A stretch of DNA of 51,109 bases from Patescibacteria group bacterium (GTDB lineage: Bacteria > Patescibacteriota > Doudnabacteria > UBA920): positions 135,776 through 186,884 of the forward strand of contig DAIMCS010000001.1 in the NCBI GenBank assembly GCA_036726225.1, written 5' to 3'. The notes under the pieces are model-generated. The model was not told the origin of the DNA. It worked only from the letters and a program-made list of their open reading frames with translations, and searched no databases. The translations under genes and the position numbers were made by a program. Shown here piece by piece: positions 18,684-19,114 of the stretch (position 1 is the first letter of the stretch; each line of letters starts with the position of its first letter).

Positions 18684-18715
18684 AAAATTGTCCTTTCAAT
18701 ATTAATGTATTAGTT

Positions 18716-19114
18716 CCCTCCCCCTTGTGGGGAGGGTTAGGGAGGGGGTTACTTTAAATGTTCAATTATTTTTAAAACCACGCCTTCCCTATTTTCTAAA
18801 ACTTCATTATTCCAAAATCTTAAAACTGTAAATCCCTGCGATCTTAGCCATTGATCCCGAACTTTATCGCCAGAGCTTTCGTAATGTTGTCCGCCGTCTA
18901 TTTCTATCACAAGCTTTTTCTCATAGCAAGCAAAGTCTACAATGTATTTTCCGATTACAGCCTGCCTCCGGAATTTCACGCCAAGATTGTCCGCCCGCAA
19001 AAAATACCACAAAAATTTTTCGGCGTCGGTCAAATTATTTCTAAGTTTGCGCGATAAAATGGTTTTTTCTTCCATTGTTACCCCTCCCCTAGCCCCTCCC
19101 ACAAGGGGAGGGGA
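18716..19114. mobile_element. DUF559 nuclease gene bracketed by ~35-bp inverted REP-like palindromes
   Basis: Left TCCCTCCCCCTTGTGGGGAGGGTTAGGGAGGGGGT (18715-18749) is the near reverse complement of right ACCCCTCCCCTAGCCCCTCCCACAAGGGGAGGGGA (19080-19114). Confidence 0.6.
18749..19075 (-). CDS. DUF559 / Vsr-like endonuclease-domain protein
   Basis: LRNNLTDAEKFLW, KFRRQ, YIVDFAC, IEIDGGQH and VLRFWN. Start at MEEK; the longer ORF start reads through the REP. Confidence 0.92.
   Translation of the reverse strand: MEEKTILSRKLRNNLTDAEKFLWYFLRADNLGVKFRRQAVIGKYIVDFACYEKKLVIEIDGGQHYESSGDKVRDQWLRSQGFTVLRFWNNEVLENREGVVLKIIEHLK

Follow-up and report, generated by a model that had tools for sequence, protein, structure and literature searches.

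In a 51,109-nucleotide stretch of the genome of a Patescibacteria group bacterium from the Doudnabacteria (contig DAIMCS010000001.1, positions 135,776 to 186,884; hereafter the window), we studied a small gene of the DUF559 family that lies between nusA and clpP and is framed by two inverted copies of a short, three-armed repeat. We found that this repeat-gene-repeat arrangement is a recurring unit, present in unrelated genomic contexts across bacteria. The best explanation for it is a promoter-less single-gene cassette, a DUF559 gene between inverted triplex-motif units, with homing-like spread, and we put the probability of this reading at about 0.5.

Cassette anatomy, repeat class and the encoded nuclease

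The cassette (18714-19116) fills the nusA-clpP spacer and consists of the DUF559 gene between two inverted 35-nt three-armed units (Table 1). The longest inverted repeat of the window, 18707-18752 against 19077-19122 (46 nt, 78% complementary), brackets the open reading frame (ORF). This repeat and the Pfam assignments of the two neighbours bear out the original prediction, which was made from the sequence alone and described a nuclease gene bracketed by an inverted pair of about 35 bp between nusA and clpP. Each arm of the inverted pair is itself a three-armed unit made of a C-rich arm, a loop, a G-rich arm, a 3-nt spacer and a mirror G-rich arm. On the gene strand, the 5' unit reads TT CCCCTCCCC TTGT GGGAGGGG CTA GGGGAGGGG, followed by TAACA and then the ATG, and the 3' unit reads, from the stop codon, TAA CCCCCTCCC TAA CCCTCCCC ACAA GGGGGAGGG AA. 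A GGAGG Shine-Dalgarno sequence lies inside the third arm of the 5' unit, 5 nt ahead of the ATG. A consensus scan of the minus strand between nusA and clpP found no promoter-like or terminator-like site, and we rejected the possibility that the units are intrinsic terminators or promoters because none was predicted there. Given the lack of such sites and the position of the Shine-Dalgarno sequence in the third arm, the cassette looks built for read-through expression inside host operons.

BoxC/PIT/TMECO repeats have been known since the 1990s; they fold into triplexes in vitro and mark unstable sites in genomes. The elements flanking the DUF559 gene had been predicted to be repetitive extragenic palindromes (REPs). 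From their three-block layout and the rules followed by their third arm, they are instead best classed as three-armed, G/C-rich class II intrastrand triplex motifs of the BoxC/PIT/TMECO kind, and not as classical REPs. Under the ITxF criteria for such motifs, pyrimidine, purine and reverse-Hoogsteen blocks follow one another in succession, with stems of 6-15 nt containing at most one mismatch and loops of 1-6 nt (Holder 2015, PMC4666352). The units at 18715-18748, 19081-19114 and 30168-30202 have this layout. The unit at 29688-29725 deviates by a first loop of 7 nt, and those at 27060-27112 and 29741-29790 deviate by a long second spacer that holds a hairpin. The exact TMECO consensus, CCCTCNCCC N3-6 GGGNGAGGG N3 GGGNGAGGG (Holder et al. 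2015, PMC4666352), is not matched by the window units, which read CCCTCCCCC TTGT GGGGAGGG TTA GGGAGGGGG and have purine arms of 8 nt without the GNGA core. By this comparison, the window units are relatives of TMECO and not TMECO proper.

The window units share with BoxC/PIT/TMECO repeats the order of a C-rich arm, a 3-6-nt loop, a G-rich arm, a 3-nt spacer (often TTA) and a mirror G-rich arm. Both are G/C-rich, occur in multiple copies and often in inverted pairs, and have a third arm that follows purine-motif triplet rules. The window units differ in having arms of 8-9 nt with the A/T at a different position, so that the consensus is matched inexactly, in their Patescibacteria host, and in that some of them lie in frame inside genes. 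Published work describes these repeats without an associated mobility gene, and a 2015 survey found no mobility genes near TMECO (PMC4666352), whereas here two units frame a nuclease gene.

The third arm is constrained in a manner expected of a triplex. Among 94 cassette-flanking units, the third-arm position opposite a G of the purine (R) arm was a G in 594 of 605 cases, and opposite an R-arm A we counted A 104 times, T 32 times, G 4 times and C never. The pairings observed are the purine-motif triplets G.GC, A.AT and T.AT. Across 71 loci, the third arm mirrored its own purine arm better than it mirrored the arms of other loci (z = 6.3). The 5' unit occurs as three arm types among nine orthologous cassettes (see below), in which the T of the C-rich arm, the A of the G-rich arm and the mirrored A/T of the third arm shift together. 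Mirror symmetry of this kind is not producible by template copying. Because such triplexes do not form in RNA, according to the introduction of PMC4666352, the constraint by triplex rules points to folded DNA, and the covariation of the arms would reflect selection on the DNA form of the fold rather than on an RNA form.

The product of the framed gene matched the Pfam family PF04480 (DUF559) with an E value of 1.1e-39 and a score of 135.1 bits, against a gathering threshold of 20.6, and the only Pfam families matched were DUF559 and MTES_1575. The DUF559 family is very large, and a structure has been solved for it. PDB 3HRL (NGO0050 of Neisseria gonorrhoeae), a member of the same family, is the sole solved structure related to the product by sequence (E value of 1e-24). 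We examined an AlphaFold model of the protein, which had a predicted local distance difference test score (pLDDT) of 87. Its first fold neighbour was 3HRL, followed by the catalytic domain of the homing endonuclease I-Bth0305I (PDB 3R3P; TM-score 0.68-0.75, Foldseek E value of 9e-5), with a weaker match to Vsr. Four residues, E19, D47, H64 and D70, are invariant among 36 homologues. Their spacing matches that of the E-D-x-H-D catalytic set described for I-Bth0305I (PMC3239194), suggesting that they are a putative catalytic E, D, H, D set. Taken together, these results indicate that the gene product is probably a DNA-cutting enzyme with a Vsr-like nuclease fold of the EDxHD type. A DUF559 gene with a Vsr-like fold had been predicted, and the Pfam match and the fold neighbours agree with that.

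The EDxHD homing endonucleases thus contain the nearest characterised fold. I-Bth0305I has several domains and about 266 residues, resides in a group I intron and cleaves duplex DNA at a specific site, whereas the cassette encodes a bare 108-residue domain, is intergenic without an intron or intein, and has ends that are predicted folded repeats. With the Vsr endonuclease, the protein shares a fold superfamily and the ...DGxxxH motif. Unlike Vsr, it scores below the cut-off of the Vsr profile TIGR00632 (17.2 bits, cut-off 97.85), and no cytosine methyltransferase gene is adjacent to the DUF559 gene. The protein is 50% identical to Escherichia coli YcjD, scores below the cut-off of the YcjD equivalog profile NF007294 (99.8 bits, cut-off 218), and has a weak PADLOC match to DpdF. 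Many homologues read through the 3' unit, resulting in C-terminal tails such as SPSLALPTRGRE.

Recurrence in unrelated contexts and history at the nusA-clpP site

We compared 80 unrelated metagenome loci that encode DUF559 relatives (51-72% identity, contig G+C content of 33-70%), using custom scripts for the strict and relaxed unit detectors and for the similarity scores. Correctly oriented units were detected at the 5' end of the DUF559 gene in 42 of 77 loci and at its 3' end in 52 of 75; in 31 of 73 loci, both ends had one. The background was 0.011 units per scanned window, giving a flanking enrichment of about 50-fold that was specific to orientation. The unit detector is conservative, and many of the misses are a hairpin-bearing variant of the unit. 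The gaps between the units of inward-facing pairs had a bimodal distribution, one class of 20-39 nt being gene-less and the other, mostly of 328-383 nt, containing DUF559; no other cargo of regular size appeared in this sample. The two ends of a cassette also resemble each other. The similarity between the 5' and 3' units of one cassette was 0.62, compared with 0.41 +/- 0.02 when permuted, and solo units had a similarity of 0.42 to the cassette ends of their own contig versus 0.32 otherwise.

Cassettes that are 81-88% identical in DNA sit in flanks without tblastx similarity, whereas a syntenic control pair gave 45 matches, and the cassette alignments begin and stop at the outer repeat ends. 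In one locus, L160, a gene-less pair lies beside a full cassette, and the two have near-identical ends that include the loops and the 3' flank. From this twin and from a solo unit in L005 (see below), gene-less pairs and solo units can apparently be related to cassettes. Units also duplicate locally between close relatives, as seen when L017 is compared with L169.

The adjacency of nusA and clpP is conserved in Doudnabacteria-like relatives, and the closest DUF559 homologues that we looked up (61-81% identical) all lie directly after nusA. Nine cassettes are orthologous, namely those of the window, L001, L003, L017, L025, L169, L171, L174 and L175. They start within about 50-70 nt of the nusA stop codon, and up to about 380 nt after it in L025. 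The 5' unit is kept in all nine and the 3' unit in eight, and the remaining spacer is unalignable. The Shine-Dalgarno sequence lies in the third arm throughout, at a constant 2-12 nt from the ATG. For DUF559, the ratio of nonsynonymous to synonymous substitution rates (dN/dS) was 0.05-0.17 wherever dS was measurable, and we conclude that the gene is under purifying selection. In the closest pair, L017 and L169, the proportion of synonymous differences (pS) was 0.38 in DUF559 and 0.49 in nusA; in all other pairs, synonymous divergence was saturated, with pS values of 0.6-0.9. These values appear compatible with vertical inheritance of the cassette, with a divergence commensurate with that of nusA and clpP.

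When placed on a tree of NusA and ClpP, the cassette is scattered, and at least six state changes are required. Patchy occupancy of one site among relatives is a further likeness to the EDxHD homing endonucleases. Many relatives have no DUF559 gene at the site. The original prediction had suggested looking for empty nusA-clpP sites in relatives, and we found them as short, repeat-free spacers in L007, L009, L018-L021 and L023, with a solo-unit allele in L005; other relatives without DUF559 have unrelated small ORFs in the spacer. L005 is the sister of the window in the host tree and its closest sampled relative, and it has one solo three-arm unit at the site of the cassette. The left flank of this unit aligns with the left flank of the cassettes, and its right part with the 3' unit of the cassettes. 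This alignment is consistent with a scar left by a deletion between the direct C-rich arms of two inverted units. As an alternative reading, the L005 unit is possibly older than the cassette.

The nuclease gene had been described as inserted between nusA and clpP, and if a recent insertion was meant, this is not so. The cassette is fixed in the species, since all 19 contigs with an identical NusA carry it, and up to 650 nt around it are identical to the window (six loci shown; less where the contig ended). The cassette is also common to distant relatives. We conclude that it is an old resident of the nusA-clpP spacer in Doudnabacteria. A tree of the 108-residue DUF559 protein had little resolution, and neither monophyly of the site copies (approximately unbiased test, p-AU 0.15) nor a sister pair of L171 and L174 (p 0.30) was rejected.

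The slot between the cassette and clpP is variable, and in L001, L003, L169, L171 and L176 it holds unrelated ORFs of 64, 82, 91 and 313 residues as well as further units. The cassette always abuts nusA, although the stretch from the cassette to clpP varies. In four nusA loci of other Patescibacteria (L058, L059, L061 and L078), the tblastn match to NusA is interrupted between residues 75 and 82 by about 190-200 additional bases, suggesting that the N-terminal domain of NusA contains an in-frame insert.

Gene-less units in the window and in E. coli

The strict detector found four units in the window. In 200 dinucleotide-preserving shuffles the mean was 0.18 and the maximum was 2, so that 0 of 200 reached four. 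The relaxed detector found seven units, with a shuffle mean of 0.71. Gene-less copies of the repeat had been predicted at several places in the window, and we recovered them inside rluD, as an inverted pair at 29686-29790, and at the end of a DedA-family ORF. In contrast, the composite hairpin at 40337-40424 is only loosely similar, and its membership in the triplex-motif family is doubtful.

Table 1. Coordinates of the cassette, its neighbouring genes and the gene-less units of the window.
Feature	Position	Strand	Description
DUF559 gene	18749..19075	-	108 codons and a TAA stop abutting the 3' unit; ATG at 19075, stop at 18749-18751
5' three-arm unit	19081..19115	-	Found by sequence, inverted repeat and strict detector
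3' three-arm unit	18714..18748	-	Inverted relative to the 5' unit; found by sequence, inverted repeat and strict detector
nusA	19129..20337	-	Upstream neighbour; Pfam
clpP	18108..18683	-	Downstream neighbour; Pfam
Gene-less full three-arm unit	29686..29729	+	TCCCCTCTCC AATTCAT GGAGAGGGG TT GGGGGAGAGG; left half of inverted gene-less pair
Variant unit	29741..29790	-	Extra hairpin GTCGCC GAAG GCGAC between arms 2 and 3; right half of the pair; relaxed detector
Gene-less full three-arm unit	30166..30204	-	Overlaps the stop codon of DedA-family ORF 30191-30817
Variant unit	27060..27112	+	Extra hairpin between arms 2 and 3; in frame in rluD ORF 26768-27763, surface loop
Loosely related C-rich/G-rich composite hairpin	40337..40424	.	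Between two paralogous small membrane-protein genes; found by neither detector

The units of the inverted pair have their third arms facing inward with about 12 nt between them, which is the same geometry as that around the DUF559 gene. The left unit of the pair is absent upstream of rpsP in the relatives L015 and L016. The rluD unit encodes ...TPHPAFGHLLPQGEKVKR..., a segment that several orthologues lack. Between the inward-facing units at 29688 and 30202 lie 443 nt with a 66-codon ORF, an exception to the pattern in which DUF559 is the only cargo. This ORF (29906-30106, plus strand), which has a GGAGG ribosome-binding site and is followed by a hairpin, runs opposite to its neighbours and has no Pfam match; it is possibly a second cargo, other than DUF559.

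The surface loop of RluD is an insertion hot spot across the window, L014, L015, L017, L025 and L026. The loop contains triplex-motif units in the window, L014 and L026, and a palindrome of another type in L017 (GACCCCGTTAGAAG...CTTCTAACGGGGTTGAC). The L017 palindrome is of the same type as a different GC-rich compound palindrome of the window (20490-20572), which lies in frame in a UPF0102/YraN-like gene (20433-20927) and whose outer stem, ACCCCGTTAGAGGC...GCCTCTAACGGGGT, encloses two inner hairpins. In L015, the loop holds an in-frame domain of about 200 residues that resembles an alpha/beta-hydrolase (GHSAGG motif). Triplex-motif units were considered as the frame of this large insert and rejected because none is present. 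Near nusA, a 64-nt direct repeat (91% identical, with ACGGAT/ATCCGT units) occurs at gene junctions at 20321-20384 and 21395-21458 and constitutes a separate repeat family. A hairpin at 18029-18049, picked up by a crude first scan, was rejected as a family member and is an ordinary bidirectional terminator.

A similar association exists at ycjD, the DUF559 gene of E. coli. In K-12 MG1655 (L177, 1351407-1351760), ycjD ends in a degenerate unit and a full TMECO lies downstream; unlike the window cassette, it has no clean 5' unit. We detected ycjD in 3378 of 5426 complete E. coli genomes, and a TMECO query matched 5148. In a strain lacking ycjD that we examined, an efflux-gene island replaces the sapF-fabI interval. 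Among sampled E. coli, further TMECO places numbered about 3.3 in genomes with a ycjD-adjacent copy versus about 2.0 in the others, by BLAST place counts; with phylogeny and query choice as confounders, this is only a hint.

Proposed mechanism, rival explanations and implications

We propose a mechanism in which the DUF559 nuclease would recognise and nick the repeat when it is folded in DNA. A copy with the cassette would be the template for the repair of breaks at gene-less units or pairs, the repeats providing short stretches of homology, and this would result in a homing-like spread. Recombination from arm to arm would delete the gene and leave solo or paired units behind, and the scattered units without a gene would either derive from such cassettes or serve as their targets. 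Taken jointly, nicking of the folded unit, repair templated by the cassette and shedding of units through arm recombination have, in our estimate, slightly less than an even chance of being correct.

Several observations weigh against this proposal. We know of no activity for any DUF559 protein. At the ends of the cassette alignments we saw no target-site duplication and no cut site, and this locus gave no sign of recent movement, being invariant in the 19 contigs and common to deep relatives. The arms and loops of the window's solo units have sequences different from those of the cassette ends; therefore, these units are not recent copies of the cassette. The density of solo units near nusA was 8 in 120 kb with the cassette versus 7 in 204 kb without it, a difference that is not significant. 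At least 1770 E. coli genomes have a TMECO match and no ycjD match, based on the counts alone; therefore, the repeats persist without ycjD. Loss of the cassette followed by re-invasion is possible and also fits the short DUF559 tree. Further, long-term purifying selection at a fixed site fits a gene that serves the host equally well.

A host-serving gene is the alternative that we consider least unlikely. A domesticated nuclease would act wherever these repeats occur, processing or repairing DNA folded into triplexes or hairpins, for instance so that replication blocks are relieved, and the cassette would not be selfish. The units at its own gene would serve expression or autoregulation, and the repeats would spread by other means. 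The old, fixed position after nusA, the purifying selection and the nusA-like rate of divergence would all be expected of such a gene, as would a third arm containing the Shine-Dalgarno sequence 2-12 nt from the ATG, a cassette without a promoter or terminator of its own, and the persistence of the repeats in many E. coli genomes that lack ycjD. However, the gene is dispensable, because it is missing from many close relatives, and the repeat-gene-repeat arrangement travels as one unit into unrelated contexts. In addition, neither the strict inverted symmetry of the ends nor the bimodal gaps would be needed for regulation.

Another explanation, which we also regard as rather improbable, is that DUF559 is a passenger. 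The units would be autonomous repeats, structural or selfish in nature, that multiply through an unrelated enzyme or replication slippage and tend to land side by side, and a small promoter-less DUF559 gene, acting on some other target such as mismatches or foreign DNA, would benefit from the ribosome-binding site and mRNA ends that they provide. This would account for the local duplication of units between L017 and L169 without the gene, for units in relatives that lack the cassette at the site, and for the one rluD loop that carries different palindromic inserts in different relatives, and the weak match to DpdF is in its favour. It does not readily explain why DUF559 is the sole cargo of regular size in our sample of inward-facing pairs, why units are enriched about 50-fold in a specific orientation, or why the two ends of one cassette co-vary. 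[quoted passage not shown]

The homing-like cassette that we favour invites comparison with REPIN/RAYT systems, to which the original prediction had likened it. The layout and the old, apparently vertically inherited gene under purifying selection support this likeness, whereas the repeat class does not, since the repeats are triplex motifs and not REPs. In both systems, a single small gene is framed by inverted short hairpin repeats that also occur without the gene, and the gene is old, under purifying selection and without a sign of recent transfer. The enzyme differs, having a Vsr-like PD-(D/E)xK fold instead of an HUH/Y1 (IS200-like) transposase. The repeat also differs in being three-armed with a mirror arm, and the 4-5 gene-less units of the window are heterogeneous and do not form a near-identical population.

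A wider form of the homing-like reading is tentative, and we hold it doubtful as a whole. DUF559 nucleases would be the missing partner enzymes of BoxC/PIT/TMECO repeats in a pan-bacterial system that extends from Patescibacteria to E. coli, and recognition of the folded triplex would drive homing-like copying of a cassette of about 0.4 kb and shed repeats. In the literature that we searched, we found no published link between DUF559 and triplex-motif repeats. If true, REPIN/RAYT would have a second, independent analogue in this system, whose nuclease would be the first known enzyme with triplex DNA as its natural substrate.

The link between DUF559 and the repeats gives both sides a hypothesis that can be tested at the bench, and the polymorphism of ycjD in E. 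coli provides a natural experiment on whether the repeats depend on the gene. The orthologous series at the nusA-clpP site shows that, like RAYTs, the package can be maintained over long periods under purifying selection, and the solo unit at the orthologous site in L005 would fit loss of the cassette by deletion. Finally, the covariation of the arms according to triplex pairing rules argues that the three-stranded DNA fold matters in cells.

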